Translations under genes and position numbers: made by a program
The notes under the pieces: model-generated
Databases searched by the model: none
The model's input: only the letters and a program-made list of their open reading frames with translations
What the model was told of the DNA's origin: nothing
Virus record (IMG/VR): IMGVR_UViG_3300045988_104412
Direction: 5' to 3' (one strand)
Source: a virus
Length of the DNA: 64,000 nt
Shown: piece by piece, positions 10,458 to 57,171 of the stretch
Layout of the letters: each line of letters opens with the position of its first letter
Numbering within the stretch: the first letter of the stretch is position 1

Positions 10458-10492
10458 TATATTATAATACCCTTAAAAAACGACAGAAAATT

Positions 10493-10717: not shown

Positions 10718-10729
10718 CACTCTACCCCA

Positions 10730-10890: not shown

Positions 10891-10940
10891 CGCCCACCAC
10901 GGCAAGGCGTGGCACCAGGTTCGAGCTCCTGGATGGGCGA
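10891..10940 (+). other. second 50-nt tRNA top-half-like element
   Basis: CGCCCAC ... CCAGG-TTCGAGCT-CCTGG-ATGGGCG-A; same architecture and similar 17-nt insert (CACGGCAAGGCGTGGCA vs CCCGGCACGGCCTTTTGC). Confidence 0.3.
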
Positions 10941-11011
10941 CTGAAAATAATAAAATACGCATAAATTATATATTAATGCGTCATTTATTTGGTAGTTATA
11001 AATATTATTGC

Positions 11012-17676: not shown

Positions 17677-18543
17677 ATGGAAAGACTTAGAGAAGTGCTT
17701 GCCTTTGTAAATCACAAAGGCGGCGTAGGAAAAACAACAACGGTGCAGAGTTTAGCGACTGGCTTGCGCCGTTTTGGTAAAGGAAAATTCGGAGTGGGTG
17801 CCGATGGACGCAAACGCTTGCCGCGTGTGCTCATTATCGACCTTGACCCGCAGGCGTGTGCCTCGTTCCTCTTCGGATGGAGCGAGATTCAGAACGTAGG
17901 CAAGCCTACCGTTTACGACGCATTGGTACAGCAAAGCAATTTGCCCATTTATCAGGTACGTGAGGGTATTTACCTCGCGCCAGCTGCTGCGCAGCTCATA
18001 TCCATTGAACCGTTCCTTAATCAGCGTGCTTTGCCTCGCAAAGCTCTTTGTAAATTGCTCGCCAAGCCACTGAACGAGCTGGCAGGCACCGAGCTGGCAG
18101 ACGAAGGCGTGAACACCGTCACGGATGCTTTCGACTACGTGCTTATAGATTGTCCTCCGGCTATGTCGCTGCTTACATATAATGCTCTCACAGCTGCTAC
18201 GAGTGTAGTGCTGCCCGTTCAACTCGAAGTGTTGGCAACAAAAGGTATTGCCGAAATCATCAACGCCATCAAGGAAACACGTGAGGATCTTAATCCCGAC
18301 CTTGACATTCGTGGCTTGCTGATGGTAATGAGCAACGACCAGACCAACGCCACAAAGGAGTTCAAGGAATACCTTGGCGAAAAGTATCAGGACTATATGT
18401 TTGACGCTTATACGCGCCGCGACACGAAGATGGTCGAAGCGCAGGCTATGCGAGAAGACATCTTTGCTTATGCACCGTATTGCAGGGTAGGGCAGGACTA
18501 TGAGCGTTTTACCAAGGAGATAATCAACAGTTTCACTTTTTAA
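17677..18543 (+). CDS. parA: ParA/Soj-type partition ATPase
   Basis: Deviant Walker A NHKGGVGKTTT, IIDLDPQ, LIDCPP motifs. Confidence 0.9.
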   Translation: MERLREVLAFVNHKGGVGKTTTVQSLATGLRRFGKGKFGVGADGRKRLPRVLIIDLDPQACASFLFGWSEIQNVGKPTVYDALVQQSNLPIYQVREGIYLAPAAAQLISIEPFLNQRALPRKALCKLLAKPLNELAGTELADEGVNTVTDAFDYVLIDCPPAMSLLTYNALTAATSVVLPVQLEVLATKGIAEIINAIKETREDLNPDLDIRGLLMVMSNDQTNATKEFKEYLGEKYQDYMFDAYTRRDTKMVEAQAMREDIFAYAPYCRVGQDYERFTKEIINSFTF

Positions 18544-24085: not shown

Positions 24086-24754
24086 ATGATAGATATTACT
24101 TTAGATTTTGAGACTTGTGCGCTTGCGCCTACGGCCGCCGTGATGAGTGTCGGAGCAGTAGCTTGGAATCGTGATGGAGACAAATCGCCTTTCTTTAATG
24201 ACAATGGTGCCGTTAAATACCCTATATTCTCGGCTCATGTAGACCTTCGGGGAATGTTTATTGAGGGTTTTACTTTCGATGAAAAGACCGCCGAGTGGTG
24301 GAAGCAGAAGAGCGAAGGTGCGAAAGCAGCCGTTCTTGAAAGTGATGACGACGCTACGCCATGTTCGCCAATAAAGACTGTTGTAGCCAATCTTTTTGGA
24401 TGGATTAAGGAAATCAAAGAAGCATTGCACGATCAGGACGTCTGCCTTTGGGCGCAAGGTTCTGATTTTGACATAGCCATCTTACGTAACATCTGTTATA
24501 AGTTGGGCGTGGAAGTTCCAGCGCATCACGCCAACTTCCGCGACCATCGTACGTTTATCTACGAAGCAGCTCGTTTGATCTGTAATGCCCGTGGAGTATT
24601 CTATCATCCGAGCAAGGCGTATGACCTTGTGGATGATTATAAGAAGTTGGAGCAAGGTGCGGAGCACGACCCGGTATTCGACTGCAAGCGTAGTATATAT
24701 TCGACGTGGCAGATGATGAAACGTTTGAAACGGTTGAAGTACCCTGACGAGTAA
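24086..24754 (+). CDS. DEDD-family 3'-5' exonuclease
   Basis: ITLDFETCAL (ExoI), GSDFDIAILRN (ExoII), HDPVFDC (ExoIII H-x4-D). Confidence 0.7.
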   Translation: MIDITLDFETCALAPTAAVMSVGAVAWNRDGDKSPFFNDNGAVKYPIFSAHVDLRGMFIEGFTFDEKTAEWWKQKSEGAKAAVLESDDDATPCSPIKTVVANLFGWIKEIKEALHDQDVCLWAQGSDFDIAILRNICYKLGVEVPAHHANFRDHRTFIYEAARLICNARGVFYHPSKAYDLVDDYKKLEQGAEHDPVFDCKRSIYSTWQMMKRLKRLKYPDE

Positions 24755-25284: not shown

Positions 25285-28200
25285 ATGTTCTTTCACCCGA
25301 TATTAAACCGCCTTGCCAACATCGACCTGCACCTTCTCGTGAAGCCTGCCAACGAGCAGCGCATCGAGGGTCAGACCGCGTGCTTCTGTCCTATCTGCAA
25401 GAATGGGCAGGACGCGGATGCCGATGTTAAGCAGACGCCTCATTTCATTATCTACGAGAATGAACGAGGTGGACTGTATGACGGCAATGGCGTTGACGGC
25501 AATCGGCTGTCTGAGCATGGTGCCGTAAGATGGAAATGCACCCGGACTGGCAAGACCGGCTACGGAGCTGTTGAATTGTATGCAGCGAAGATGGATCTCC
25601 CGATGCACGGATATAGTCTTCAGCGCATCTGTCAAAGACTTGTAAGGGATGTGTATGGCGATACCGACGAGGTGCGCCGTGCCTTCCCCGAAGTGTTTGC
25701 CAAGATGGACTACCGTACCCAGGCACAGCAGACCATCGAGACTTTCTCTTTCATGCCGAAGACCGACTTCTCGCCACAAGAGCTTGCAGCCCTTGGGTGT
25801 GAGGTGACGCTCGACAAAGGATTGCCTCGCTTCGGCTTTGGCAGCACGTTCACGCCCGACATGCTCAATAAGGACTTCCGTATCTATTCCCTTCTGAGCG
25901 TAACGCTGCCCGACGTGATACGCGACGGTCAGCATGTGAGCGAGATTATTCATGGCACGCCTTGGAATCCCTTGTTCGTATGCTTTGCCTCGCAGGAGAT
26001 AGGTCCGCAAAACTCATACGGATGTTTCTTCCGTCCGGCAATGGCTGGCAGTGAACCGATAGTGTTTTCTACCGCCGAGGAGCATGGCGTGAGGAAGGTG
26101 AGCAAGTGGCTCATGGGCGACAACGTGTTTGTTCATGCAATGGATAATCGCAAGAGCGACAATACAGCTGTTCATGCTGCCATCCAGAAGTTCGAACCGA
26201 CGGAGAAGTATACCGAAGAAAAAGAAATATGGGTAGAACGTGAAGACAAGAATGGCGTGGGGAAAGGAACTTTTAAGCAAGAGAAGAAGAAGATTCCTAC
26301 CGCTCAAATAAAGGCTCGCAATATCGTCTTTTGTCGTACTCCCGAAGACGCATTGAGCGTGTATTATGCCATGCGTTCCTTGCGCCTTGACAAGATGGAA
26401 GACCAGCACTTCCAAGACTTCTGTTGGTATCACGTGGCGTTCTCCATCGGACGGAGAAACTTCTGGTACATAGAGCGTGGCGAGTGGAAACGGGAGAATA
26501 TTGACTTTAGCGGTGTGCAATATCAGAAGATGAACCGTTTTGCCGAGCACGTCATTATTCTATACCCTAACGACATTGCCTCACAGCGCGACTGTGGAGC
26601 TATATGCACCAAGTTCAGCTCATTGTATTATGCAATGCTGCCAGAAGGTTTCCGATCGCGTTACTGCCGACGCTGGCAATGGCTGTATGGCTGCTCTCCC
26701 CGAAGCGTGCGCGACTATCTGCTGACGTACACCATGAATGCGGAAGAGAACTTCCAGTTCGACCATGACCTTCGCCTTCCACTCTACTCCCGATTGCGTG
26801 GAGCCAGGAACACGGAACCATTCGAGATCGAATATCTCCGTGACCCTCGAAGCGGAAAACCAAAGCCACCTACCTGCAAGGTGTCGCCTACGCGATTGTG
26901 GCTCTTTATGACCGCTCACGGATATTATCGCATGATAGACCCCGAGAGCACCGACCTTGTCGGACAGTATATCCACCTGAACAAATGCTTTGTGGAGTAT
27001 ATCGACGCAAAGAGTATCATCCAGGCAGCAAAGACAATGCTATTGGAATATATAGAACAGGCATGGCGGCATAGCGACAACGAGCGACGTTTAATGTCCG
27101 ACTGCGCTAATATGGTGGACAAGACCTTCACGGAGAAGTCTGCCGGAGGTTTGCAGAGCATGGTGATAAACTTTGCTGATGCCTTCAATGCCAAGACGGA
27201 GTATTTTTACTTCAACAATGTAGCATTGAAGATAACACCCGACAGCATCCGCACGGTGTCTTACGACGACATAAACTTCTTCATCCCCTCGCTTGCCAAG
27301 AAGCCGTATGACTTCACGATGCGAGTGTTCAAAACACCGTTCACCATCACCGAACGACAGGAATACCGCGACCGACTGGAAGCGATAGACAAGAAGGAGA
27401 AGATGCAGAATGAGGACGGGTCGCCAGTTTTCACCTACGACGAGATAAAGCAGATGCGTGGCGACCTTATGGAATGGGCTCAGACATACCGTTGGGATGT
27501 CAACTGGCAAGGACAGCAAGAAAAAGACCTTTGGCCTATTCTGCGCATAGTGCGCGGATTCTCAAACACCCTTTGGGAGCGAGAAAGAGACGTGCAACGT
27601 AGCAAAGAGAAGCTTACTGATGACGAGCGAGCCGTAATAAACGCCCATTTCGCCAATATGCTTTCGGGCATAGGCAGGCTTTGTTATCGTTCATGGGAAG
27701 GGATGCAGAACGTCTGCCCTTATCTTCTTGAGGATAATATCGCCGACGAGAAACAAGCCTCTGGTGGTAGTGGTAAGTCGGTATTGGTAAACCTCGTGGT
27801 TGGTTCGGCTGTCAATGTGTTCTGTGTTGATATGAAAGACTTCCTTACCGTTGTCGATGCAAAGTTCTGTCTTTCCGACTTGCTCATATATCCCGGCAAA
27901 TATCGGGTTGTACACTGGGAGGACAAGCAGAAGAACTTTCCGCTCAAATACTTCTACAACAAGATTACCAAAGGTACGAAGGTTGAAAAGAAATTTGGCG
28001 ACCCCGTTAGTCTGAAGATGGAAGACTCTCCGATGCACGTCATAACAAGCAATAGTCCGTTGAGCGACGACGACCCATCTACTATAGGTCGTTTTCCTCT
28101 GGTTAGTTTCTCCGACCGCTTCGCTCGCGAGAATCCTCAAAAGCGACAGCCGGCGCGATCACCATCCGACATTATGAAGCGTTTTGATACCGACCCCGCC

Positions 28201-28953
28201 AAACTGACTGACACCGACCGCAACCAAGCCATCTACATCTGCGCCTTGGCAGTGCAGTTCTTGATGCGCTATCACACCTTTGCCATTGCACCGCAAGGCA
28301 ATGTGCGTCGCCGTCAGATGGTGCAGAAGCTCACCGAGAGCATTGTCCGCTACTTCGAGTGGTTCTTCTCTCGCAACGAGGTTTACGGAGTGCCTATATG
28401 TACCGATGATATGTTCAACGAGTTCATGCGCGACTGGGCAGATGCCTCTGAGGGTAAGTCGAAGGAGTATAGTCGAGCCACCTTCAAGAAGAAGATATAC
28501 GACTATTGCGAAAATATGTCGATAACGTGCAATCCTAAGCATCTCTTCGAGAACGAGAGTGACAAGCAGCGCAAGTGTTTCAAGCTGCAGGCTTGGGTTA
28601 CGCAGGAATACTTCACTGGGCGCGAATGGGAGAACGACAATACCATCGAGCCGAAGTTTATCCGCTATATGCAGACTTCCAAGCACGTCTTCTTCTTCTT
28701 CCGTCCTGGCAAGGATGCGATACCGAAGGACTACCGCGAGCTCAAGCGCATAGCAAAAGCCTTTGCCGAGCAGCCTGACCCTCTGCCTGACCGCGATGAC
28801 GATGGTAACATCATCACGCTTACCGACGAGGAAAAAGAACGCTGGGAGAACAATAAGACACGCAAGCAGGGTAGGCGTATGGCGTCGCCTCCGGCAATTA
28901 CTACCGCCGCAGCTGTTACTTCGGACGTAAAGGAGGAGGATCTGCCGTTCTGA
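25285..28953 (+). CDS. primase-helicase: N-terminal zinc-finger region and C-terminal P4/D5-type SF3 NTPase
   Basis: CFCPICKNG zinc motif; Walker A ASGGSGKSVLV; VVHWEDK; HVITSNSPL...RFPLVSFSDRF typical of P4-alpha/D5 C-terminal domain; ends EEDLPF. Confidence 0.7.
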   Translation: MFFHPILNRLANIDLHLLVKPANEQRIEGQTACFCPICKNGQDADADVKQTPHFIIYENERGGLYDGNGVDGNRLSEHGAVRWKCTRTGKTGYGAVELYAAKMDLPMHGYSLQRICQRLVRDVYGDTDEVRRAFPEVFAKMDYRTQAQQTIETFSFMPKTDFSPQELAALGCEVTLDKGLPRFGFGSTFTPDMLNKDFRIYSLLSVTLPDVIRDGQHVSEIIHGTPWNPLFVCFASQEIGPQNSYGCFFRPAMAGSEPIVFSTAEEHGVRKVSKWLMGDNVFVHAMDNRKSDNTAVHAAIQKFEPTEKYTEEKEIWVEREDKNGVGKGTFKQEKKKIPTAQIKARNIVFCRTPEDALSVYYAMRSLRLDKMEDQHFQDFCWYHVAFSIGRRNFWYIERGEWKRENIDFSGVQYQKMNRFAEHVIILYPNDIASQRDCGAICTKFSSLYYAMLPEGFRSRYCRRWQWLYGCSPRSVRDYLLTYTMNAEENFQFDHDLRLPLYSRLRGARNTEPFEIEYLRDPRSGKPKPPTCKVSPTRLWLFMTAHGYYRMIDPESTDLVGQYIHLNKCFVEYIDAKSIIQAAKTMLLEYIEQAWRHSDNERRLMSDCANMVDKTFTEKSAGGLQSMVINFADAFNAKTEYFYFNNVALKITPDSIRTVSYDDINFFIPSLAKKPYDFTMRVFKTPFTITERQEYRDRLEAIDKKEKMQNEDGSPVFTYDEIKQMRGDLMEWAQTYRWDVNWQGQQEKDLWPILRIVRGFSNTLWERERDVQRSKEKLTDDERAVINAHFANMLSGIGRLCYRSWEGMQNVCPYLLEDNIADEKQASGGSGKSVLVNLVVGSAVNVFCVDMKDFLTVVDAKFCLSDLLIYPGKYRVVHWEDKQKNFPLKYFYNKITKGTKVEKKFGDPVSLKMEDSPMHVITSNSPLSDDDPSTIGRFPLVSFSDRFARENPQKRQPARSPSDIMKRFDTDPAKLTDTDRNQAIYICALAVQFLMRYHTFAIAPQGNVRRRQMVQKLTESIVRYFEWFFSRNEVYGVPICTDDMFNEFMRDWADASEGKSKEYSRATFKKKIYDYCENMSITCNPKHLFENESDKQRKCFKLQAWVTQEYFTGREWENDNTIEPKFIRYMQTSKHVFFFFRPGKDAIPKDYRELKRIAKAFAEQPDPLPDRDDDGNIITLTDEEKERWENNKTRKQGRRMASPPAITTAAAVTSDVKEEDLPF

Positions 28954-30085: not shown

Positions 30086-30139
30086 TTCAAATTGCGCAAT
30101 GCGCAACAATTCAAAATTCAAAATTCAAAACTCAAAAAT

Positions 30140-31330
30140 ATGAAACTTCAAGCCCAATCATCACGCGCTTTTCACGCAGCCCTTAACAAGTCGGCAAAGT
30201 GTATCGGCTCAAAAAATCCAATTGCCATTTTCGACAATGTGCTGCTGACCTGCAACGAAAGCGGTCTGTTCTTTCTTACGTCATCTACTGCAGAAGCACA
30301 GCTCACCATCCCGGCACCCCTTTCGTTGTGCGGTGGCAAGTTTGAAAAGCCGATAGTGCTGCCCATCAAAATGCTCAGTTCGCTGTTAGGCACGCTGCCC
30401 GACTGCGTTGTTACTCTGGATGTAGAGGAGGGTGGCTCGTCGTTCACCGTAGAGTATTGCACCGGCAGTGGCGACAACGTTAAGTCGGGCAAGGCTAAAA
30501 TGGCATATTTCTCGGGCGACGAATACCCCCAGATGTTGTTGCCCAAGAGTGAGGCATCGACAATCATTTGTCTGCCTTGTCAGTTGTTTCATTCTGTTAT
30601 AGATACTGCGGACAAGTTCGTTCAGATAGACGAGTATCGCCCCCAGCTTTCCAGCTTGTGCGTAGACATTGCTGACGACCGCTCAGAGGTGGTCTTTGCG
30701 GCTACGAACGGACACACGCTTGCGAAGATAGTACACAGCAATGATCCGCAGAAGGGCGGTAGTGATTTCTTCCGTAGTGGCGAGCCTCGCAAGACGCTTA
30801 TCCTTCGCAACTACTTCCGTACGTTGTCTGCCTTTGACGGCTGCGAGGAGATCAGTATCGAGAACGACGGAAACACCATTCGTTTTTCGTCGGGCGACAT
30901 CGAACTTATCTGCAAGCACATGGAGGGCAAATACCCTAACTACAACGGCGTAATTCCGAAGTCCCATCCTTACTTCGTCGTATTTGAAAAGAAGGAAATG
31001 ATTGACATCCTGCGCCGTGTCAGTCTTTTCTCAAATAGCGCAAGCAATCTTGTCAAGGTAGAGAAGAACGGCATCTTCATCAACGTTTCTGCGAGTGATA
31101 TGGATTTTGCTATGTCCGGCGAAGACCAGGTGCTCATATCTAACGCAGAGTGCCCCGACAATTTCCGTATCGGATTGAAGTCGTCGGCTTTTCAGACCTG
31201 CATCAACTCCATTCCTTCAGACACCATCCGTATGCAGTTGCACGACTCTATGCACGCCGTAGTGCTCACCGCCGACACACCTGCGCCTAAAGTGATGACG
31301 CTTGTGATGCCGATGGTGCTTGACGACTAA
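30140..31330 (+). CDS. dnaN: DNA polymerase III beta sliding clamp
   Basis: N-terminus ...IAIFDNVLLTCNESGLFFLTSSTAEAQLTI and ~400-aa three-domain length fit DnaN; ATG 30140 preferred over TTG 30092. Confidence 0.8.
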   Translation: MKLQAQSSRAFHAALNKSAKCIGSKNPIAIFDNVLLTCNESGLFFLTSSTAEAQLTIPAPLSLCGGKFEKPIVLPIKMLSSLLGTLPDCVVTLDVEEGGSSFTVEYCTGSGDNVKSGKAKMAYFSGDEYPQMLLPKSEASTIICLPCQLFHSVIDTADKFVQIDEYRPQLSSLCVDIADDRSEVVFAATNGHTLAKIVHSNDPQKGGSDFFRSGEPRKTLILRNYFRTLSAFDGCEEISIENDGNTIRFSSGDIELICKHMEGKYPNYNGVIPKSHPYFVVFEKKEMIDILRRVSLFSNSASNLVKVEKNGIFINVSASDMDFAMSGEDQVLISNAECPDNFRIGLKSSAFQTCINSIPSDTIRMQLHDSMHAVVLTADTPAPKVMTLVMPMVLDD

Positions 31331-36934: not shown

Positions 36935-37719
36935 TCAGAAAAGAGTAGGCTGCGCCAGCTCCAGTTTGATGCGCTTGCAAGCCTTGTCGTAATACTCCTT
37001 GTTGAGCTCGAAGCCGATGAAGTTGCGCTTCTCGCGGATGGCTGCAATGGCGGTGGTGCCGCTGCCCATACAGTTGTCTAAGATAGTGTCGCCTTCGTTG
37101 GAGTAGGTGCGGATGAGATACTGAATAAGAGCTACTGGCTTTTGGGTGGGATGGATCTTCTCCTTATCCCGAATAAATTCGAGTAAATTTATAGGGAAAC
37201 GAGAACCATCACTTACTGTCACCGCTCCTCCATTTTGCGCTTGACATTTTCCTCGTACCATTGCAGCGTCTTTTCGTTGAATGCCATTTTTGCAGGCATA
37301 AGGCTTGCACCCCTTAATCATTTGAGGATGATACTCCATATACATTTTTTCTTGCTTTCAGTTGTTGCAGCCATTCCGAAAACACATATATCCTCTGTAA
37401 TCTTCAATGGTTGATGATGGGAATTTAAGTAATTAGTACCGCTCTCTTTTTTCCATATCCAATTATACTTATACATATCTATGTTCGACATGATAAGCGC
37501 AGACGTGAAAGGTTGCTGACTAAACAAGACTATAGCACCAGTATTCTTTATGATTCTCTTGTATTGCTCCCACAACTTATCAAATGGAAGCACGCTATCC
37601 CAAGCGCAAGCAGTAGTACCATACGGCAAATCGCACACGATGCAATCCACGCTCCCGTCCGGGATCCTTTTCATTCCTTCCAGACAGTCTTCATTATATA
37701 TCTTATTCAGTTCTATCAT
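36935..37719 (-). pseudogene. beta-class N6/N4 DNA methyltransferase interrupted by a frameshift at an A6 run
   Basis: ORF 37719-37318 has motif IV (CDLPYG); ORF 37345-36935 has HPTQKP and CMGSGTT (motif I); frames join if A6 (37345-37350) were A7. Confidence 0.75.
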
Positions 37720-38730: not shown

Positions 38731-40000
38731 TTAAAATTCGCCAAAATCCAGTTTCATCTGTTGAAATTTCTCGGCATACCATTGTCTGGATGATTTGCCA
38801 GAAATCCACCAGTCGTAGATGTTCTCCGCTATTTCGTTTTCTTGCTCCTCTGTCAAGCGGTCAGAAGAGGAGCTGTCCGAAAACCCAATGCGGCGAGTCC
38901 ACACACCGGTGTTCCTTCGGACAGGTCTTCCAGTTACAGACTGTCCGCATCCACTGTTTACAAATGCGGAACGTCGGCATTGCCGCTTCTCGTATTTTAC
39001 CCCCCAGTCGGATTGTTTGTAGAATCGAGCTGGATCCAATGTTCCGGGTCGGGATGCTTGATGTAGCCGCCTGCGTCCTGAGCAATTCTCTGACGTTTCT
39101 GAGAGGCATCCAGTCCTTGTGGATGTTCCACCAGATGTATTCTTTTTTGAATACCCCCCCGTTTCGGATGGCCTTAATCGCCTTAATCCAGTTTCTCTTT
39201 ACATGTGGATAGCGTTCGTTTTCTATCATCTTTTGCTTATGCGAACTCATTGGACAGCCGATGCAACCTATGCGGTGCCATCCTTCGTCGTAGAGCGAGC
39301 AATGCGGAACTTTCACAACATCATTAAGAAATTCCCATACGTCTTGCTCGGTCCAATAGATAATGGGCGAAATCAGTAGACTCTCTTTGCCGTGGATGCA
39401 GCCTAACGTCTGCTCCTCGTCGGCATTGGTGATGTTCACTCCGTCCTCTCTTGACTTTCGCCTTATGCGTTTAGCCTTCTGCTCTTGTCTATACTCTTCA
39501 AGACCATCGAGGTCGCCGCTAAACTTTCGATTGTTTATCTCCACCTCGTTGCGCTTTGCCCGGCGCGAACTCTCTGCCTTACGTATGCCGATAAGCGTAA
39601 CCTTGCCAGCACCTGCCGTTTCCTTGTATTCAGCGCAGCACCAACGCACACGCATAGTTGGCAAAATCTGTCTTTCTACGGCACTTTGAAAGATGGATTT
39701 ACCAGGCTTGTTTAGTTCCACCTCGGGATAGTTTTTCTTCACGAAGCGTATCACTTCGGGCGGGTCAACGCTCGTAAGATTCATGTGACCTTGAAACCTT
39801 ACCCCCGCTAACTATGCGATATGGTAGAGAGCCTGAGAATCTTTGCCGCCGCTAAACGCCAAAAAATAACCTTGCTCGGCATCATAGTTGAGAGCAATCT
39901 TCTCCGCCTTTTGCAACAATTCCACCGAGTGAAGCATTTTCTTTCGCAATCGTGCCGAAGCACGGTTTAAGGCTTCGGCAAGCGTAATTTTGATATTCAT
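38731..40000 (-). pseudogene. PP-loop ATPase / PAPS-reductase-family gene with in-frame TAG and at least one frame change
   Basis: SGGKDS in ORF 40000-39812; TAG 39814-39812; same frame resumes 27 nt later (39784); C-terminal coding signal ends in another frame at 38731. Confidence 0.7.
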
Positions 40001-40198: not shown

Positions 40199-41209
40199 TT
40201 AGAAGGAAGCGTTTATTCCGTAATTCCTCAAATACTCCTCGCACCTGAAGTCCTTTCTTGGTGAGAAGTCCTTGAAATTGGTAGTACAGAAAATCATTCG
40301 CTTATTGCACCAGCGTGCCAGATCCTTTTGCCATTCCGGAACAACGTGATTAGGATTCACGGGGTCACGGTATGGCTGAGCGTAAGCATAAACCGCCCTA
40401 CCTTCGTGAGTCTTGCGAAACCGTTGTAGACGTTTCCACCAATAGTGTAGCCGATGATAGCATTCTTCAAAGTTGTTCTTGCCGCCTATCATGGTATAGA
40501 GAAAGTATTCGCCCCGGAATCCTGCCGCATTGATAAGTTGCATGGCTCGTTCACAATATGCTATCTGTGCCGTGGTGTCGCAACCAAAGCGGATGCGAGA
40601 GTCTATCCATTTCACTTTCCCTAACAGCTCGGCATATTCGGGAGTGACAAGCCGTGCATCCATCGCCTGATTGAAGTCGATATGCAGACCGAGGTCGATT
40701 ATCTTCTTGAGCTGCTCCTTTGCATAGTCGCCCGCCGCAAGAATGTTGTTGTCCATCAGCACAACATGCGTGCGCCCCTCTATGGCAATTTCTTCTATAT
40801 CCATGTAAGGACGTATGCGCCCCTCCTTTTTCGGAACAACACACCAGAAGCATTTGTTAGGGCACCCCTCGGTAAGTTTGCCTACGGCTTGATTTTTCGG
40901 TAGCCAAGGGTACATCGCGTAGAGAGGTTGGAGCTTGTCTATCTCGTCGGGCAGACGCTTATAGATGTCGTAGCCCGTGCCACCCTTCTCCAGTCGGTCG
41001 TAGGAGAACTGCCGAAAGTCGATGTCGGGCGAAAAGTTGAAAACCTTGCTGGCATACAGTATGTCGTAATGATGCCTGTCGAAAAGGTCGGTAGGCTGTG
41101 CCCATTCCACTTCATCGCCCTGCGTCGTGTGCCAACGGGCAATCTTGCCGAGATCCACGTTAGGGTATATCGTAGCTCCCCATTTCTTTTTGCCGTGTCG
41201 CCCATCCAC
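40199..41209 (-). CDS. radical SAM enzyme, unknown substrate
   Basis: CPNKCFWC (CxxxCxxC) cluster motif; 336 aa. Confidence 0.8.
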   Translation of the reverse strand: MDGRHGKKKWGATIYPNVDLGKIARWHTTQGDEVEWAQPTDLFDRHHYDILYASKVFNFSPDIDFRQFSYDRLEKGGTGYDIYKRLPDEIDKLQPLYAMYPWLPKNQAVGKLTEGCPNKCFWCVVPKKEGRIRPYMDIEEIAIEGRTHVVLMDNNILAAGDYAKEQLKKIIDLGLHIDFNQAMDARLVTPEYAELLGKVKWIDSRIRFGCDTTAQIAYCERAMQLINAAGFRGEYFLYTMIGGKNNFEECYHRLHYWWKRLQRFRKTHEGRAVYAYAQPYRDPVNPNHVVPEWQKDLARWCNKRMIFCTTNFKDFSPRKDFRCEEYLRNYGINASF

Positions 41210-50152: not shown

Positions 50153-50311
50153 CCTTCCGTAAGCTGCAAAGCATTTGTCTTGCGCTACTTTTCGCAATTA
50201 GTGAAGCATTTATCAGGTCGTCGCGCCGTTAGGCGAGGCGACCTTTTCGTTTGCGCTTCACTCGCTTTTCTTCCGTTTTCTCACTTATTCAAGAATAAAA
50301 CTTCTGCCCCC

Positions 50312-50845
50312 AAAGTCCAAAACTATATACTCTTATAACTCCTTAATAATCATGGATATTACATATAATCTACTCGTTAAAAGTCCAAAAATCTACTCAA
50401 TAACGCTACTACTATATATAAATTTCGCCAATTTTCTTTCTCTCCCATTTTCAAAACTCCCCAACCTTAACAATATAGTTAGTAGCATTAACGCCTATGG
50501 CGTAAATAATTGACATTTAATAAATTATAGGAGATGGGGAAAGGCAAATAAGCGCTGAAAACGCTATAAAAAGTCATATTTCTACTATTTTTATATATTT
50601 TTTTTGTTCTTTGCGCTCGTATAGATATATAAAAAATCCCCTATTTTTAAACTTTTAATAGATAAGTAACGGAAAATCAGAAAGTTAAATCACTTTTTGA
50701 AAAATTCATTGGGTAGTCACGAGGTGGATTCTGAGTGGACAGTGGAGGTGTTTTTCAAAATCATGGACTTTTCATTTTTCGGCATTTCTTTGAAAAATGA
50801 ACTCTAAAACTAAAAACTGGACTTTTGAAGGCTTAAAAGTCTAAA
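50312..50845. repeat. dispersed AAAGTCCA boxes in a 0.8-kb non-coding region
   Basis: AAAGTCCAAAA at 50312-50322 and 50380-50390; inverted TGGACTTTT at 50764-50772 and 50818-50826; variant AAAGTCTAAA at 50836-50845. Confidence 0.8.
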
Positions 50846-50878
50846 CATAACTAACATAAGAAAAAAATAGCCGAACTA

Positions 50879-50913
50879 TTGTTTATTTCAGTTTTAATTA
50901 TTAAATTTGCAAC
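50879..50913 (+). promoter_or_regulatory. conserved promoter cassette, copy 3
   Basis: TTGTTTATTTCAGTTTTAATTATTAAATTTGCAAC; TAAATTTG at 50902-50909. Confidence 0.65.
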
Positions 50914-50948
50914 TGATATAGTAACCCAGTTATTTCTACTTATAAAAT

Positions 50949-52055
50949 ATGTTTGACGAGATTTGCTCAGTATATAAAGAGTCAACCGATGCCGAGGGCC
51001 GTTTTGTTGATCGTGAGACGGGCGAGTGCATCCAGCAGATGACTATCCGTGAGTTCTGTTTAACGGATAGATGGAAGCCGTATGTGCAGCGACTGCGTGC
51101 AATGCGTCAAGAGCTGGGCAGTAAGGCAAAGAAGATGCCGGAGTACATCGAAACGAAGAAGATGCTACCCGGTGCTACGCTTAGTGGGCTGTTTGCTCTC
51201 TACGAAGATGATAGTCTTACCCATCCTGGGCAGCGCGTCATGGTTAGCCGACGCGAAAGTCATCTCAAGCAGCATACTGGTTGGCTCGCCATTGACATTG
51301 ATTTGGCAGACAACTGCCGCTTGAGCAACTTTGAAAACATCCTCATGGTATTGCGTCATCGCCCCGAAGTGGGATTGCTTATGCGTTCATGTTCGGGTAG
51401 CGGCTATTTTGGTTTGGTACGCTTGGCATACCCCGACCGCCATAAGCAGCAGTTTAGAGCATTACTGCAGGAGTATGCTGCCATCGGTATCAGTCTTGAC
51501 AAAGCATGTAGCAACATCGGCCGCGTGCGTTTCGCCTCGTGGGATGATCCCGAGCATATATATATAAATGAACGCGTGGTGCCATACAAGGGCGTTGATG
51601 ATTTGGTTGCCATATCACCATTGCCGAAGCGAGTGTTTGACAATCAAAAGCAATATGGAGATTCTTCTTTAGAATGCCAGCCGAGGCAATCTGGAGGATG
51701 GAAGGATGACACACCTGACATTGTGCTGCGCAAGGCGCGCGTGCTTGTCCGTAAAATAGAGGAGAGAGGAGTGAATATCTGTGGAGGGCATGGCGACTAT
51801 ATTGTTTGGCTCAAATGCGGAATGTCGCTTTACTGCATTGATTCTGTTGAAGGCTACGACATGTGGAAGCGTGTTTCTCGATTTCGCCCGCTCGATGTAA
51901 ACCACGGACACCGAGAATCGGACTTCGTTTCGCCTTGGCGCTCGTTTGGTAGCTATAAAGGAGATAATCCTGTAACCGCGAACTCGTTTTTCAAACTTTG
52001 CAAAGTTAATAATGTAACACTTTCGCGGGATGATATGCGAGAGATTTATGGATAA
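50949..52055 (+). CDS. archaeo-eukaryotic primase-like protein (VirE/BT4734 N-terminal type)
   Basis: KKMLPGATLSGLF ... HTGWLAIDIDLAD (DxD) ... SCSGSGYFGLVRL. Confidence 0.6.
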   Translation: MFDEICSVYKESTDAEGRFVDRETGECIQQMTIREFCLTDRWKPYVQRLRAMRQELGSKAKKMPEYIETKKMLPGATLSGLFALYEDDSLTHPGQRVMVSRRESHLKQHTGWLAIDIDLADNCRLSNFENILMVLRHRPEVGLLMRSCSGSGYFGLVRLAYPDRHKQQFRALLQEYAAIGISLDKACSNIGRVRFASWDDPEHIYINERVVPYKGVDDLVAISPLPKRVFDNQKQYGDSSLECQPRQSGGWKDDTPDIVLRKARVLVRKIEERGVNICGGHGDYIVWLKCGMSLYCIDSVEGYDMWKRVSRFRPLDVNHGHRESDFVSPWRSFGSYKGDNPVTANSFFKLCKVNNVTLSRDDMREIYG

Positions 52056-52128
52056 TTCTCTTTGCTGCGTATTTGTGAAATATTCGATTTTGTAATGTAA
52101 AATCTAAATAAAACGAAAAAGTTCTATT

Positions 52129-53097
52129 ATGATTAAAGAATTTAAAACTCGTACAGGAGCGATTTTTAGTGATACTAAGAATTGTCTTGAGTATTTGTAT
52201 GTTGGCGACTATGGCAAGGAAGCCAACATCAAGGCAGACTTTCTTGGCTTGACCAAGGAGATTAATGGTGTAACCCACAAGAAGGTTGACCTTGAGGATA
52301 AGATGGTCGTTACTATTTCTACTCAAAAAGGATGCCCAATGAAATGTAAGTTCTGCGATTGTCCTAAAGTCGGTTTCCACGGCAATGCCAATGTTAGTGA
52401 CCTACGAGCAGAAGTAATGTCGGCTATCGTTCGTTCAGGGTGTCAGCATACAAAGCGCTTCAACCTTCACCTGGCTCGTATGGGTGAACCGTCTTTCAAT
52501 TGGGATAACATCAAGATCTATTTGCTTTGTTATCTTAAGGATGATGTTAGTGTGTTCATGGATGCAGATGTTATTCATCCTGTATTTACGACCATGCTTC
52601 CGCGTACTTTGGGACGTAATACGCTTAAACGTATTCTCGGCGAGTTTTGTCAAGTTAAGAATTGCGAGTTTAGAGGTGAAGCCGGATTGCAGTTGTCTAT
52701 AAACTCTACAGATGAAGAGCAACGTAATGATTTGTTCCGCGGGCTATCTTTGTCTTTGCAGGAAATTTCAGAGATTTGTCAGGACTTGCCCATGCCGGTT
52801 GGCAGAAAATATACGCTAAACTTTCCCGTTACCAGGAATACGATATTGGACCCTGTTGTCTTGGATAAACTTTTTGATAAGGAAAAATTCATTGTGAAGA
52901 TAACCCCTATTCACGAGACGAAAGAGGCTATAAGCAATGGCATCCAGACAGAGGAGGGATATTACACATACGACGTCTATAAACAGTTTGAGAAACCGCT
53001 TGTCAAAGCAGGTTGGGATGTGATCGTTTTTGTTCCTTCAGTGGAAGAAGACGAGGACAGAATAACTTGTGGCAACGCCATTTTGAGTGAACATTAA
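52129..53097 (+). CDS. RlmN/Cfr-like radical SAM methyl-transfer enzyme, short form
   Basis: [30 protein letters not shown] vs RlmN [54 protein letters not shown]; C-terminal TCGNAIL vs AACGQLA. Confidence 0.7.
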   Translation: [322 protein letters not shown]

Positions 53098-53107
53098 GAG
53101 TAATAAT

Positions 53108-53605
53108 ATGAAACTGATAACGATTACTGGCCCGAGTGGTGCAGGAAAAGATACAGTTGCTCGGATGCTGTCCGATTTGGGCGATTATAAAGTGATATGT
53201 TCTTATACCACACGTCCGAAGCGTGAAGGCGAGATTGACGGCGTGGAGCATCACTTTGTAGAGAAGTGCGATGTGCCGCATGACAATATGCTGGCTTATA
53301 CGCAATATGGCGGTTATGAATATTGGACCACCGTAGAGCAGGTGGGCGATAAGGTTATTTATGTTATCGACGAAGATGGACTGAAGTCGCTTTGCGAGAA
53401 GTTTCCTGATATAGAACTGTTCAAAATTTGCGTGTCGGCAAAGGAACGCACCCGGCTTCGCCGAGGTGTTACCCCTGAACGCATGGCACGCGACAAGCGG
53501 CGCAAACGTCTACCTTTGTCATTCTACGATGCTGTGATCTTTAACAACGATTCGCCTGGTGATCTGCGTGACGAAGTGTTGCGCGTAAGATACATGATTC
53601 AATAA
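53108..53605 (+). CDS. guanylate-kinase-like nucleoside monophosphate kinase
   Basis: ITGPSGAGKDT P-loop; SYTTRPKREGEIDGVEHHFV; ATG 53108 preferred over GTG 53087. Confidence 0.8.
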   Translation: MKLITITGPSGAGKDTVARMLSDLGDYKVICSYTTRPKREGEIDGVEHHFVEKCDVPHDNMLAYTQYGGYEYWTTVEQVGDKVIYVIDEDGLKSLCEKFPDIELFKICVSAKERTRLRRGVTPERMARDKRRKRLPLSFYDAVIFNNDSPGDLRDEVLRVRYMIQ

Positions 53606-53665
53606 AAACGATTGTGGCAATGAGAATGCACTATCTATTAAATAACAAATTAAGATTCGTAAGCA

Positions 53666-54562
53666 ATGAAATTGATAAGCAGTTCAGTGGAATGGTGGCA
53701 GCAGCAGAATCTGTCGCAGCACATCGCACGAGTAGGCAGGGTGTGTTACAAGTCAAAGGGTAAGCAGCCCGACGAGAATATGTCGGCAGAGGAAGCGGAA
53801 GCCTTCATTCAGAAGCGTGACGAAGAACGCTGCAAGGGCTTCTGGGAAAGCGGACACCGTTCGATGTACCGACATGGCACAAGATACTTCTTTCTGCCCA
53901 ACGAGAAAGGATTTCCAAACTACGTCTGGGCATACCTAAACGCTTCTCCCTATATCGACTATGCCACGAAGGAACACAAGGTTTGGATTAGTGCTAATCT
54001 GCAGGTCTTGCTTGAGAACGGCGATATGTTTGAGTCATTAAAGCAATACTCTGTAACCGAAGACGAGTTTATCGAGAAGGCAATGAAGTATAAATGCGAG
54101 TCGGCTTTTGCCATTTTACGTATGACATTTGCTGTCACTACGCAGATAAGCACGTCGCGTGAGCTGAATCGCAAGTCGCCCAACAGCATTGCTGAGCAGA
54201 GCACGCGCTATTGTAACCTTGAAAAGAAAGGTGGCGTACAGATAGCGCGTCCACATTGGTATCTTTACGGCACACGTCTGCAGTGCATGGTATATAGCTT
54301 TGTATGCCGAGTTTGTGAGTGGGGATATAACCGACTTCTAAAGCTGGGCTTAAAGCCGGAAGATGCACGTGGTGTATTGCCTCTTGATACCTACACGGTG
54401 GCGGTGTATACATACACCATCGCCGAGTGGAAAGAGATTATAGACCTTCGCTATCATGGCAAAACCGGCAAGCCACATCCTAATGCGCATTTTGTAGCGG
54501 AGCGCATACGCAACATTATCCTGCGGCGTATGCGTGAGTATTTACCTGAGTTTGAGATTTAA
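53666..54562 (+). CDS. ThyX-like (flavin-dependent thymidylate synthase fold) protein with divergent signature
   Basis: IARVGRVCYKS, ESGHRSMYRHGTRYFF, SRELNRKSPNSIAEQSTRY (SxRY kept, RHR replaced by NRK), ARGVLPLDTYT...IIDLRYH. Confidence 0.6.
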   Translation: MKLISSSVEWWQQQNLSQHIARVGRVCYKSKGKQPDENMSAEEAEAFIQKRDEERCKGFWESGHRSMYRHGTRYFFLPNEKGFPNYVWAYLNASPYIDYATKEHKVWISANLQVLLENGDMFESLKQYSVTEDEFIEKAMKYKCESAFAILRMTFAVTTQISTSRELNRKSPNSIAEQSTRYCNLEKKGGVQIARPHWYLYGTRLQCMVYSFVCRVCEWGYNRLLKLGLKPEDARGVLPLDTYTVAVYTYTIAEWKEIIDLRYHGKTGKPHPNAHFVAERIRNIILRRMREYLPEFEI

Positions 54563-54649
54563 ACAAAATACTACATTATGACAAATGAGCGTTAGACTTT
54601 ACGTGTTTGTTTATATCAATAACCGACCTTATGATAAATAGCATGAATT

Positions 54650-55606
54650 ATGGCTAAATCCAACCCTATCAAAGCAAGAGAGCAGTTTGTGCGCAATCAG
54701 CCCACAATCTACTCTTTCGATTTCAAAGATGTACCTTCGGGCAAGTATGCTGAAACATTGGATGTTCTCTTTCATAACCCCGACTATAGTGAAGCTGTTG
54801 AGAAGCGCAACCGTCTTGTGAAGTCTGCAGAACGGTTGCGTCCAGGTTCAAGCGAGATGATTAACCTCGTGAGAACTATTCAGCAGCACGATCGCAAATT
54901 GGCAGACATCATGTATTCTTCAATCGTTCAGACCAACCTGCACTCTGATGTCGGCTACGATTTTCTTTCGTTTAGCACTCTGCTGAAGTATTATGTTGAC
55001 TACAAGAAAGACGGTATGCGTGAACGTGCCAACCGCATGGCTGCCAATCTCGACAAGGTTACGTTTCTCGCCGATATGCTCGAAAGCATCGTTACCGATG
55101 TGAAAGCTGATATGCGTGAGGTGTTCGACGGCAGCATTGAGTTCAATCAGTTTGACGCCGTATTGAAGGTTCTTACCCAATTGAGAGGATTCTTCAAGTC
55201 GGCTCGCCGTGGTGATGCCGACTCACTTGAAGCGAAGCTCTATTTTGATTACTCTGATTCCATAAACGAGTATATAGAGAAACGACTGAAGACGTACACC
55301 GCAAAGTATCGCAAGATACACCCTGCTGAAAAGACCTATACTGAAGCAGACCTCATTGAAGGCCTTAACCAGTTCTTTGGTTGTCATGCTAAGTTCGACT
55401 TGAGTTTTATTGCTCACACCGAGTCGGGAGGTTGCTATATTGACATTGCGAAGCTCTGCCAGAATCTCAATCGCAACGAAATGGAGATATTTGAGAAAGT
55501 CTCCGGCAAAATGAAGTCGAACAACGTAACCAACGACGCTCTGCGCAATTGTTTCAACGCCACTGATTTAATAATGAGCCGCTATAAGCGACCGAAACTA
55601 AAGTAA
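54650..55606 (+). CDS. hypothetical protein
   Basis: 318-aa ORF. Confidence 0.55.
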   Translation: MAKSNPIKAREQFVRNQPTIYSFDFKDVPSGKYAETLDVLFHNPDYSEAVEKRNRLVKSAERLRPGSSEMINLVRTIQQHDRKLADIMYSSIVQTNLHSDVGYDFLSFSTLLKYYVDYKKDGMRERANRMAANLDKVTFLADMLESIVTDVKADMREVFDGSIEFNQFDAVLKVLTQLRGFFKSARRGDADSLEAKLYFDYSDSINEYIEKRLKTYTAKYRKIHPAEKTYTEADLIEGLNQFFGCHAKFDLSFIAHTESGGCYIDIAKLCQNLNRNEMEIFEKVSGKMKSNNVTNDALRNCFNATDLIMSRYKRPKLK

Positions 55607-55612
55607 TAAGCC

Positions 55613-56347
55613 ATGCCTAATATCTACCTTCGTCTACCCTCCAGTCGTTGCCAGTTCTTTCGCAACCGCGACCCGAAGCACGTACTTGCAAAGGACGAGC
55701 CGTTGGTGTTCAGCCCGTATATGCCTCACCACTTTGTCTTGCGCAAGCATATAACCAATATTCCTGCCGTTACGCAAAAAGTGAATCCGCAATGTTTCTC
55801 ACACCAGCAGTGGCGCAACATGATGCAGGGCAAACATCCCAATGGTGGCGAAGTTGTTACAAAGCGCGATCCGCATGAATACTTGTCTTTTGGCGAGGTT
55901 CAGCGGCTTAGTGGAAGGCAAGATTACGCTAAGAGTGACAATGAAGACTATCTGTGCATAAAGTTGCCTTCGGAGGTAGAGGTGGTTGACGTGGTTCGCC
56001 AGGTTACGCCGGCATGGAATTTGAGCACACGCGGCATCCGTCAGTTGCTTATCATGCTAAATGATGATTTTAAGCGTAGCGTTGTGGAATGGGCTTTAGC
56101 TACATTCGATTATTGCACATCAAACAAGCGTATCATTTGCCGACGTCAAACAGCCATGCTTGAGCGTTTCTTGATGCGCTACGGCATAGATCAGAACGAG
56201 AACGAAAAAGACACCCTGCGTCGTATCATCAACCGATGGTTGACCTCAGACCATAGCAATTTTAAAGCTTACTCGTGTGCTGATATGCAGTATATAGACG
56301 ACAGCGAGAAGGTTTACTTCGTAGATGATGTATTGTTTGACGATTAA
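55613..56347 (+). CDS. hypothetical protein
   Basis: 244-aa ORF. Confidence 0.55.
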   Translation: MPNIYLRLPSSRCQFFRNRDPKHVLAKDEPLVFSPYMPHHFVLRKHITNIPAVTQKVNPQCFSHQQWRNMMQGKHPNGGEVVTKRDPHEYLSFGEVQRLSGRQDYAKSDNEDYLCIKLPSEVEVVDVVRQVTPAWNLSTRGIRQLLIMLNDDFKRSVVEWALATFDYCTSNKRIICRRQTAMLERFLMRYGIDQNENEKDTLRRIINRWLTSDHSNFKAYSCADMQYIDDSEKVYFVDDVLFDD

Positions 56348-56416: not shown

Positions 56417-56908
56417 ATGCGGACTACCAATAAATGTAGAGAATTGTTCCTTGACGGCATCACTGATGTGATGTTTTACCCAAAGGACTCTTGCGTTTTC
56501 CCCATACCATTCAGCATGGCGCAAGTTTTATATATTAACGATTGCAAATTGCCCGACGAGCCCACCTTGCGACTGGCTACGAGTGGCGAGGACTTCGTTG
56601 TTGTTGAGAATCTCAGCGTAAAGGTGACGTTTCCCAAGCAGGGTAATGACACCATATACACCTATGATATTAGTACAAATGTGGTAGATGGAGGCGAAAA
56701 TGTGCGTGAAGCTTACCGAAGTATGCGCGGAAAAGACTATTATGTTGTATTGCGAAAGGAAGATGGCTCACTGCAGTTGTGCTACTCTTTGCCTCACACC
56801 TTTGGTATGGGTGGCACTCTGACCAACAGCCAGACGGAGTTGGCACGAACCTTCACCGCCACTACGCAAGCCCTTTCGGAGCCAATACCTATCACACTTC
56901 GAGAATAA
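56417..56908 (+). CDS. hypothetical protein
   Basis: 163-aa ORF. Confidence 0.55.
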   Translation: MRTTNKCRELFLDGITDVMFYPKDSCVFPIPFSMAQVLYINDCKLPDEPTLRLATSGEDFVVVENLSVKVTFPKQGNDTIYTYDISTNVVDGGENVREAYRSMRGKDYYVVLRKEDGSLQLCYSLPHTFGMGGTLTNSQTELARTFTATTQALSEPIPITLRE

Positions 56909-56951
56909 CAAGAGAATGGTTCATTTTTTAAACCTTATAGTATTACGTTAG

Positions 56952-56977
56952 AGCCGCTGTTCGTGAGAATGGCGGCT
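56952..56977 (+). terminator. intrinsic terminator with GTGA tetraloop
   Basis: AGCCGC-tgTTC-GTGA-GAAtg-GCGGCT followed by TTTTT. Confidence 0.7.
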
Positions 56978-57033
56978 TTTTTGTCCTTACACTAAAAACT
57001 TCGGTCTTTAATTTTGCATACGGATAACAACAC

Positions 57034-57107
57034 AGCGGAGTGGTAGCAGCTGGCAGCTCACTTGGCTCATAACCAAGAGGTCGATGGTTCGAGTCCATCC
57101 TCCGCAA
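57034..57107 (+). tRNA. tRNA with CAU anticodon (Met, or Ile2 if lysidinylated)
   Basis: 74 nt: acceptor AGCGGAG/CTCCGCA (6 bp, A1/A72 mismatch), anticodon arm CTTGG-CTCATAA-CCAAG (CAT 57068-57070), T-arm GATGG-TTCGAGT-CCATC; D-stem only 3 clean bp; no encoded CCA. Confidence 0.75.
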
Positions 57108-57171
57108 CTTTTAACAACCAGGTAAAAAGGTTGTATTCAGGATAACACAACACAAAACACAGATTTTACTA

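Follow-up and report, generated by a model that had tools for sequence, protein, structure and literature searches.

A virus-borne radical SAM protein from an apparent sister family of the RNA methyltransferases RlmN and Cfr

To our knowledge, RlmN and Cfr are the only known class A radical S-adenosylmethionine (SAM) methylases; they act on A2503/A37 of RNA by a mechanism that needs two cysteines. Loss of the resolving cysteine of RlmN, Cys118, traps a covalent adduct between the enzyme and its RNA; structures 4pl1 and 5hr7 are of RlmN C118A. Here we describe a 322-amino-acid (aa) radical SAM protein that resembles these enzymes. It is encoded on the plus strand at positions 52129–53097 of a 64,000-nucleotide stretch of IMG/VR virus record IMGVR_UViG_3300045988_104412, and this whole stretch is called the window below. 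Judged from sequence and predicted fold, the protein appears to belong to a very large sister family of the class A methyltransferases RlmN and Cfr, and to be neither RlmN nor Cfr itself.

The resemblance to RlmN and Cfr, which a preliminary description of the region had seen by eye, is statistically real, as phmmer matched the protein to RlmN in the PDB with an E-value of 5e-7. When a profile of 12 family sequences was searched against the whole PDB, the best match was RlmN 6fz6 (1.3e-15, covering aa 53–264), followed by E. coli RlmN (about 5e-14) and Cfr (5e-11), and the next radical SAM enzyme reached only 8e-4. An AlphaFold (AF2) model made from 36 homologues had a pLDDT of 85.5 and a pTM of 0.86. 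Foldseek searches with this model ranked RlmN 6fz6 first (E 4e-11, TM-scores 0.65/0.62), then other E. coli RlmN entries (about 2e-9) and then Cfr (3e-5). Sactisynthase, lipoyl synthase, TYW1 and spore photoproduct lyase (SPL) came far lower, the last three with E-values worse than 5e-4. Identity of the family to RlmN is only 17–23%, and the window protein fell below the thresholds of all the curated models concerned. The general Radical_SAM model of Pfam gave 24.4 bits (threshold 29.5). The best NCBIfam model was the RlmN model TIGR00048, which covered aa 53–137 only and reached 39.9 of the 290 bits required; NF008396 gave 30.1 bits against 633, and the Cfr models 15–18 bits against 468–550. 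Protein names assigned by JGI call some family members ‘23S rRNA (adenine2503-C2)-methyltransferase’, a label that the evidence does not justify.

To map residues, E. coli rlmN and plasmid cfr were aligned with 17 family members, and occurrences were counted in a hidden Markov model alignment of 352 family proteins. Twelve positions (in RlmN numbering, S120, G124, C125, C129, C132, G179, E180, N184, S233, R242, C355 and G356) were invariant among RlmN, Cfr and the 17 members. The radical SAM motifs quoted in the preliminary description, including ITCGN, were all present. C69, C73 and C76 of the window protein correspond to C125, C129 and C132 of RlmN, and G119-E120, part of a GEP motif at 119–121, to G179-E180; the CxxxCxxC cluster site and the GEP motif are conserved in at least 347 of the 352 proteins. 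Cys314-Gly315 aligns with Cys355-Gly356, and the cysteine of the C-terminal TCGN is thus at the Cys355 position, as had been suggested. A cysteine is found there in 120 of 120 proteins of the phage clade, 119 of 119 of the cellular clade and 44 of 56 of a clade of fusion proteins. The position of Cys118, seven residues before the cluster, is occupied by Thr62 in three independent alignments, in agreement with the preliminary description, and a cysteine occurs there in none of the 352 family members. The N-terminal domain of RlmN and Cfr, of about 95 aa, which modelling and mutagenesis predict to bind the substrate RNA (PMC2836569), has no counterpart in the family. Segment 29–50 at the N-terminus of the window protein is highly conserved yet predicted to be disordered. 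The pI of the window protein is 5.9, compared with 6.6–7.0 for RlmN and Cfr; as indicators of RNA binding, pI and net charge were not discriminating here. The protein has the cluster site, SAM motif, fold and Cys355 equivalent of class A methylases, and it lacks Cys118, the N-terminal domain and scores at the curated thresholds.

The family is widespread. Matches to the window protein comprise at least 7,385 clusters (90% identity), of which the best 120 are 69–93% identical to it, and the cellular clade comprises at least 5,394 clusters (90% identity) from Pseudomonadota, Myxococcota, Brocadiia and Thermoplasmata, the counts being of clusters that passed E-value cutoffs in candidate-limited searches. 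Relatives in IMG/VR (46–93% identity) lie on contigs of 26 kb to 410 kb, and the megaphage-like contigs among them also encode IF3, a sigma factor, TyrRS and SSB. The window protein matches phrog_24834, a family with no described function, over its full length (1e-97). This family includes a protein of the cultured Bacteroides phage Versailles (WAK79139.1, 50% identity), whose gene lies between ParB-like and Holliday-junction resolvase genes with no kinase or ThyX gene nearby. More distant cultured relatives (23–30% identity) occur in Ounavirinae, in Vibrio, Salmonella, Stenotrophomonas and Moorella phages and in a crAss-like Kehishuvirus. A scan with the single protein against one genome for each of 185,579 prokaryotic species gave 13 loci, all of them in bins of metagenome-assembled genomes (MAGs), and one of these is a 410,106-bp contig listed as viral in IMG/VR. 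Our literature search found no paper describing the family or the cellular cassette considered below.

Five syntenic phages of one lineage, labelled L010–L014, share not only the block of genes around the radical SAM gene of the window but also tape-measure, protease and capsid genes. Within this lineage the radical SAM proteins are 75–93% identical, compared with 53–81% for the kinase, 52–77% for ThyX and 69–75% for the capsid protein. The higher conservation of the radical SAM protein fits a gene that is independently constrained or exchanged. When open reading frames (ORFs) within 5 kb of the radical SAM gene were clustered all against all, no neighbour was common to more than 12 of 48 loci. 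In phages the gene behaves as a mobile, stand-alone accessory gene.

On one IMG/VR contig (L035) the radical SAM frame is split into two ORFs, 10001–10597 and 10607–10987; the gene could be a pseudogene or contain a recoded stop, or the contig could be misassembled. In Kehishuvirus sp. ‘tikkala’ (L003, 4296–5513) a distant homologue adjoins an SPFH/band-7 (prohibitin-like) gene. Homologues of this type, including that of Stenotrophomonas phage BUCTxx99, have 262–291 aa, are without the C-terminal cysteine segment, and are next to, or annotated as, SPFH/band-7 proteins.

To compare genomic surroundings, the loci were reduced to 39 non-redundant contexts, and 137 flanking proteins from the 28 phage contexts outside L010–L014 were scanned against Pfam. 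In these other phage contexts the radical SAM protein is 46–80% identical to that of the window on gut and rumen contigs and 23–30% identical in the distant cultured phages. FMN_red was found five times among the neighbours, N6_N4 DNA methylase four times, DUF5131 and NAD synthase three times each, NAPRTase and isochorismatase twice each and ThyX once. An SsuE-like FMN reductase (FMN_red) abuts or overlaps the 3′ end of the radical SAM gene in six phage contexts (L004, L020, L022, L033, L035 and L038), and its product is 36–71% identical to the L004 copy. Genes of NAD metabolism were also seen near the radical SAM gene. FMN_red is followed by NAD synthase at L004 10972–12557, L020 8113–9698 and L038 10972–12553, a PncA-like isochorismatase by NAPRTase at L016 11268–13061 and L039 10986–14171, and a glutamine-dependent NadE gene (L007, 1408–3414) lies 6.6 kb upstream of the radical SAM gene. 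Such neighbourhoods may represent anti-NADase islands or may have a functional link to the radical SAM protein. About 10 of 32 independent phage contexts, the window included, have a tRNA gene no more than 10 kb away, a frequency that is not informative.

Cellular relatives are found in a cassette with the order isochorismatase-like hydrolase, thioredoxin reductase (TrxR)-like flavoprotein, radical SAM protein (for example L058 4449–6912, L059 4624–6897 and L060 4516–6933), in variable genomic surroundings; that of L059 adjoins HsdR, a PIF1-WYL helicase and HipA. The flavoprotein gene ends at the start of the radical SAM gene in all four cellular contexts inspected. Among 80 metagenome loci (L080–L159), 55 had enough upstream DNA, and the flavoprotein gene ended no more than 150 nt upstream of the radical SAM gene in 53 of them (43 of 55 when a 60-nt window was used). 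The hydrolase was the first gene of the cassette, within 2.2 kb of the radical SAM gene, in 45 of 50 loci, and no fourth conserved gene was found in the cassette. Best NCBIfam matches of the hydrolase were to RutB, biuret amidohydrolase and YecD-like proteins, and nicotinamidase was weaker. The TrxR-like protein has no conserved cysteine and hence no CxxC motif, from which it follows that it is not a disulfide reductase; for the same reason we rejected it as a source of the resolving thiol in trans. From its sequence it looks like an electron donor of the ferredoxin-NADP reductase (FNR) type, resembling the TrxR-type ferredoxin/flavodoxin reductases.

Three kinds of fusion were also found: Pyr_redox_2 with the radical SAM protein, the radical SAM protein with isochorismatase (P0242 and P0262), and a QueT-like domain with the radical SAM protein and a nucleosidase. 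The last, of about 815 aa, comes from Firmicutes MAGs and joins a QueT-like ECF-S membrane domain, the radical SAM part and a 5′-methylthioadenosine/S-adenosylhomocysteine (MTA/SAH) nucleosidase (MTAN; 224 bits, cutoff 169). Its radical SAM part is 40% identical to the window protein over the full length and shares its KADFLG insertion. The fusion gene stands alone in housekeeping surroundings (L050 8001–10445, L051 2680–5130, L052 8001–10433). No riboswitch or other Rfam family was found upstream of these fusion genes or in 16 cellular cassette loci. That the radical SAM protein is an analogue of the queuine lyase QueL, an idea that came from the QueT-like fusion, was rejected as unsupported: QueL 6p78 ranked 45 in the Foldseek search (E 0.02), and there were no queuosine genes among the 25 most frequent Pfam families of the 137 phage neighbours. 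None of these partners (FMN_red, TrxR-like, isochorismatase-like, MTAN or QueT-like) is encoded in the window.

Downstream of the radical SAM gene lie genes for a guanylate-kinase-like P-loop nucleoside monophosphate (NMP) kinase and for a ThyX homologue, both on the plus strand. The kinase gene (53087–53605, 172 aa) has a GTG start that overlaps the radical SAM stop by 11 nt, and the N-terminus MNIK... of its product is conserved in L011–L013. Its description as guanylate-kinase-like was upheld: PF00625 gave 47.2 bits (gathering threshold, GA, 25.2), guanylate kinases in the PDB were matched at 4e-15, and both GPSGAGKDT and TTRPKREGE are in the sequence. With the guanylate kinases 4qrh and 2j41 the protein shares this P-loop, the NMP-binding motif S-x-TTR-x2-R-x-GE and the overall alignment, but it is shorter and is below the equivalog cutoff (TIGR03263, 59.5 compared with 160.45 bits). 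Alanine and histidine, invariant in the lineage, replace a glutamate and a tyrosine of the aligned S. aureus enzyme (4qrh, ‘fiEYaeY’). By analogy with the yeast enzyme structure, the glutamate and tyrosine probably contact guanine/GMP, so the base specificity of the window kinase may differ.

The ThyX gene (53666–54562, 298 aa) encodes a protein that PF02511 matched with 79.8 bits (GA 24.8), over aa 129–265 only, and that did not reach the equivalog TIGR02170 (56.8 compared with 87.9 bits). In place of the signature RHRxxSxxxxSxRY the window protein reads R-K-S-P-N-S-I-A-E-Q-S-T-R-Y, with the histidine and the second arginine replaced, and it has ‘RH’ in place of ‘EH’; the motifs were aligned with those of PDB 4p5a. 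The preliminary description had called this ThyX divergent. It is divergent, but not as a special feature, since it is an ordinary crAss-type ThyX. The product of gp28 of the prototypical crAssphage Carjivirus communis, a ‘putative flavin-dependent thymidylate synthase’, is 39% identical to it over 94% of its length; the altered motif is conserved in L010–L014 and in gp28, and the two proteins share ‘TQISTSRELNRxSPN.IAE.STRY’ and ‘GH.SM.RHGT’. ThyX of this type was found in 80 phage records, nearly all of Bacteroides or crAss-like phages. In crAssphage, gp28 is two genes downstream of the dNMP kinase gene gp26, whose product belongs to another P-loop family than the window kinase and aligns with it in the P-loop alone. 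No radical SAM gene was present in the 6.8-kb stretch around gp28 that was read. We read the window kinase and ThyX as probably an ordinary pair for dTMP synthesis and NMP kinase supply, as in crAss-like Bacteroides phages.

The preliminary description had combined the radical SAM, kinase and ThyX genes into one nucleotide-modification module. This was not borne out, as their synteny is limited to the five related phages L010–L014. When all proteins of the block were compared by tblastn with the first 49 loci, the kinase, ThyX, the primase-like protein and the three proteins of no known family (see below) were found only in this lineage, and the window kinase as query gave nothing outside it. 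That the radical SAM protein, the kinase and the divergent ThyX, together with the 318-aa and 244-aa proteins described below, form a pathway that provides the phage genome with an unusual base, such as a C-methylated purine, made at the level of nucleotides or DNA, is in our view highly improbable. In its favour, the genes are co-oriented and tightly packed, with the overlap of kinase start and radical SAM stop, and the kinase has alanine at the guanine-contacting position and ThyX an altered RHR motif. A second lineage, L056, also has a ThyX gene directly downstream of its radical SAM gene, the only ThyX neighbour outside L010–L014; however, this ThyX is a weak blastp match, has a canonical RHR motif and is 27% identical to that of the window. 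In L014 an unrelated 301-aa ORF sits between the radical SAM and kinase genes, and the altered motif is normal for crAss-type ThyX, found without the radical SAM gene in the crAssphage stretch. The 25 commonest Pfam families listed for the 137 neighbours did not include Guanylate_kin. The co-inheritance expected of a hypermodified-base pathway was thus not seen, the combination being present in five syntenic genomes only and absent from 28 other non-redundant contexts. Unlike the ThyA-like hydroxymethylases, ThyX-fold enzymes are not known as established hypermodification markers, and nothing in the analysis shows an unusual base. In annotation, a kinase and a ThyX beside the radical SAM gene should not be taken as a hypermodification pathway.

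What the protein itself does can be approached by analogy with its relatives. Cysteine-mediated C-methyl transfer of the class A type, to a substrate other than that of RlmN, is the reading that we prefer, and we would put it at about even. In this reaction one SAM would methylate Cys314, and a second would be cleaved at the reduced [4Fe-4S] cluster to give a 5′-deoxyadenosyl radical, which would take a hydrogen from the S-methyl group. The methylene radical would then attack an N-heteroaromatic ring at an electron-poor sp2 carbon, in the way that RlmN and Cfr attack adenine at C2 and C8, respectively. A flavoprotein would supply the electrons, and the by-products would be SAH and 5′-deoxyadenosine, in line with the MTAN fusion; as the window encodes no reductase partner, reduction of the cluster would fall to a flavodoxin or ferredoxin of the host. 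Because the family has neither Cys118 nor the N-terminal domain of RlmN, the adduct would have to be resolved by another base or partner, or else the chemistry differs, and the substrate is probably not A2503 or A37 recognised in the manner of RlmN. The missing RNA-binding domain and the partners of the relatives (the dedicated NAD(P)H flavoprotein, the amidohydrolase, and the MTAN fused with a membrane S-component) weakly favour a soluble substrate of small-molecule or nucleotide type. The partners also lend mild support to a nucleotide-level substrate, one of the options in the preliminary description.

The protein could instead be an RNA adenine C-methyltransferase like RlmN and Cfr, acting during infection on host or phage tRNA or rRNA through other recognition elements, with the tuning of decoding or the protection of RNA from a host nuclease as conceivable roles. 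We consider this possible, though on balance doubtful. No other characterised enzymes come nearly as close to it as RlmN and Cfr, whether by sequence or by fold, every protein of the phage clade has the Cys355 equivalent, and the conserved but predicted-disordered segment 29–50 would suit a loop that binds a macromolecule. However, the domain of about 95 aa predicted to bind RNA (PMC2836569) is missing, Cys118 is missing throughout the family, and the NCBIfam models of RlmN and Cfr scored 7- to 20-fold under their cutoffs. The tRNA genes near some radical SAM genes would fit an RNA substrate, but two thirds of the contexts have none nearby. The fusion of close cellular relatives to an ECF-S-like membrane domain, and the association of distant ones with an amidohydrolase, would be odd for an rRNA or tRNA enzyme. 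Absence of Cys118, together with replacement of the Cys355 equivalent in 12 of the 56 fusion proteins, would be in line with non-methylating radical chemistry on the RlmN scaffold, in which the C-terminal cysteine would serve as a hydrogen-atom donor, as in SPL, or as a covalent catalyst, and a heterocycle would be cleaved, isomerised or reduced in concert with the amidohydrolase. The strictly coupled NAD(P)H flavoprotein could then mean net reductive chemistry beyond the priming of the cluster, and SPL, lipoyl synthase and TYW1 are among the weaker fold matches. Yet RlmN and Cfr have the same Cys-Gly-(Gln/Asn) motif at the same position, and the MTAN fused to the Firmicutes proteins, which clears SAH and 5′-deoxyadenosine, fits, without proving, an enzyme that uses two SAM molecules. 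We regard such chemistry as unlikely.

The preferred reading, class-A-type methyl transfer to a non-RlmN substrate, can be made more specific in a form that we hold to be rather improbable. In this form, the virus-borne, one-cysteine sister family would C-methylate or capture a nucleotide-type small molecule (NAD+ or nicotinamide, an adenine-based immune signal, or a free purine converted to 2- or 8-methyladenine) as counter-defence or metabolic takeover, and jointly with this the hydrolase, flavoprotein and radical SAM protein would act as a self-contained cassette in bacteria and archaea. The sole hint towards NAD is that several large phages have NAD-salvage genes (NadE, PncA, PncB) recurring near the radical SAM gene. 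Scans with PADLOC defence models yielded no significant match to the radical SAM protein or its partners in cells, nor to the kinase, ThyX and the 318-aa and 244-aa proteins of the block. Several points weigh against the preferred reading and its small-molecule form. Methyl transfer is deduced by homology at 17–23% identity to RlmN. RlmN and Cfr need Cys118 for turnover, and its absence could mean other chemistry; moreover, the Cys355 equivalent is replaced by Ser, Asp or Asn in the 12 exceptional fusion proteins. The cellular clade is only about 27–30% identical to the phage protein, so that its substrate may differ. The isochorismatase that follows the radical SAM gene in two phages (L016, L039), itself followed by NAPRTase, is 24% identical to the cassette hydrolase and is probably PncA paired with PncB. 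The small-molecule reading is guilt by association, as any radical SAM enzyme would profit from a reductase of its own and from an MTAN. Finally, the start of the kinase gene overlaps the radical SAM stop in four of the five members of the lineage, which makes local co-translation possible.

The preliminary description had named six plus-strand genes in this block, and all six were recovered at the same positions in the ORF listing. Their order is primase-like, radical SAM, guanylate-kinase-like and ThyX, followed by three genes without family assignment, of which the last, a co-oriented ORF at 56417–56908, is additional to those named before; it ends the block together with a terminator-like hairpin (56950–56979). 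Upstream of the block, an AT-rich non-coding spacer of about 800 nt (50153–50948) contains no credible ORF, has a GC content of about 0.425 in the 50–52 kb bin, and is preceded by a gene for a 2066-aa tape-measure-like protein. The spacer is presumed to be a promoter region. It contained no more sigma-70-like matches than expected from shuffled sequence, and its direct repeats are short and of two copies only. The first gene of the block (50949–52055, plus strand) encodes a 368-aa primase-like protein with a BT4734-like N-terminal domain of the archaeo-eukaryotic primase (AEP) type (PF08800, 29.4 bits, GA 22.4) and a PriCT-2 domain (PF08707, 20.7 bits, just under the GA of 22). DNA primase families of PHROGs matched it weakly, and in the tblastn comparison the gene was syntenic only in L010–L014.

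Beyond ThyX, two plus-strand genes encode lineage-specific proteins of 318 aa (54650–55606; 52–74% identical in L011–L014) and 244 aa (55613–56347; 64–92%). Scans of both against Pfam, PHROGs, NCBIfam and PADLOC gave no family, and their profiles matched nothing in the PDB below an E-value of 0.1; a single-sequence AF2 model of the 244-aa protein had a pLDDT of 33 and was unusable. The last gene of the block encodes a 163-aa protein, also lineage-specific, that is syntenic in L010–L014 (37–96% identity) and had no family match in Pfam, PHROGs or NCBIfam. The terminator-like feature on the plus strand (56950–56989, hairpin and T-run) has a 13-bp stem with six GC pairs and is a consensus match only; such sites were not enriched in the region (3 found, 6.7 expected from shuffles). 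Between the hairpin and a head-protease gene, with capsid-like genes further downstream, lies a plus-strand tRNA-Met gene (anticodon CAT, 57034–57108) detected by ARAGORN (Rfam tRNA, 43 bits), whose position is kept in L010–L014. The Rfam scan of the window gave tRNAs only, with no riboswitch or other family, and a nucleotide search with the whole block against 50,697 phage records gave no match.

Elsewhere in the window, the minus strand carries another radical-SAM-like ORF (40199–41209, 336 aa), unrelated to the first, with the cluster motif CPNKCFWC, a PF04055 score of 20 bits and weak MiaB/RimO-like matches. Two ORFs away, also on the minus strand, is a PAPS-reductase-like ORF (38861–39784; PF01507, 52.5 bits), and the pairing might point to a function in DNA or sulfur-related modification. 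Overlapping short minus-strand ORFs at 36935–37345 and 37318–37719 correspond to the C-terminal and N-terminal parts of a CcrM-like N6/N4 DNA methyltransferase; a frameshift or a sequencing error seems to have divided a single methylase gene. Further genes encode an NAD-dependent DNA ligase (15108–16703), a ParA-like ATPase (17677–18543), a protein with a Rep-like initiator domain (19886–21097), an exonuclease (24086–24754) and a DNA polymerase III beta clamp (30092–31330). A 1222-aa ORF (25285–28953) had no match in Pfam or NCBIfam.

The RlmN/Cfr-like family described here, of comparable size to its relatives, has one catalytic cysteine, no RNA-binding N-terminal domain and a partner set of its own. 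Finding its substrate would extend cysteine-mediated radical methyl transfer beyond rRNA and tRNA, and would account for a gene that is among the most widespread of those without known function in gut and rumen phages, megaphages included. A cultured model is on hand in Bacteroides phage Versailles, which grows on B. caecimuris.

Compared with RlmN, which forms m2A2503 in 23S rRNA and m2A37 in tRNA (3rfa, 4pl1, 5hr7, 6fz6), the window family shares the barrel with a beta extension before the cluster loop, the motif S-x-Q-x-G-C-x3-C-x2-C, GEP, S233 and R242, and Cys355-Gly356. It differs in the absence of Cys118 and of the N-terminal domain, in scores of 40–50 bits with RlmN models whose cutoffs are 290–633, in its genomic partners, and in that its phage clade is almost exclusively viral. 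Cfr, which forms m8A2503 in 23S rRNA (9p0p), agrees with the family in class A architecture and in the conserved residues given for RlmN but is a weaker match, and it keeps the Cys118 equivalent and the N-terminal domain that the window family does not have. We found no evidence linking the family to antibiotic resistance. The radical SAM protein of the cellular cassette, from MAGs of Pseudomonadota, Myxococcota, Brocadiia (Planctomycetota) and Thermoplasmata, is about 27–30% identical to the window protein and does not have the GDYGK..KADFLG insertion of the phage clade. Like the window protein, it retains the Cys355 equivalent, in the motif ‘IGSNCGQ’, and is without Cys118 and the RlmN N-terminal domain, and, in common with several of the phage versions, it has a flavoprotein reductase as its partner.

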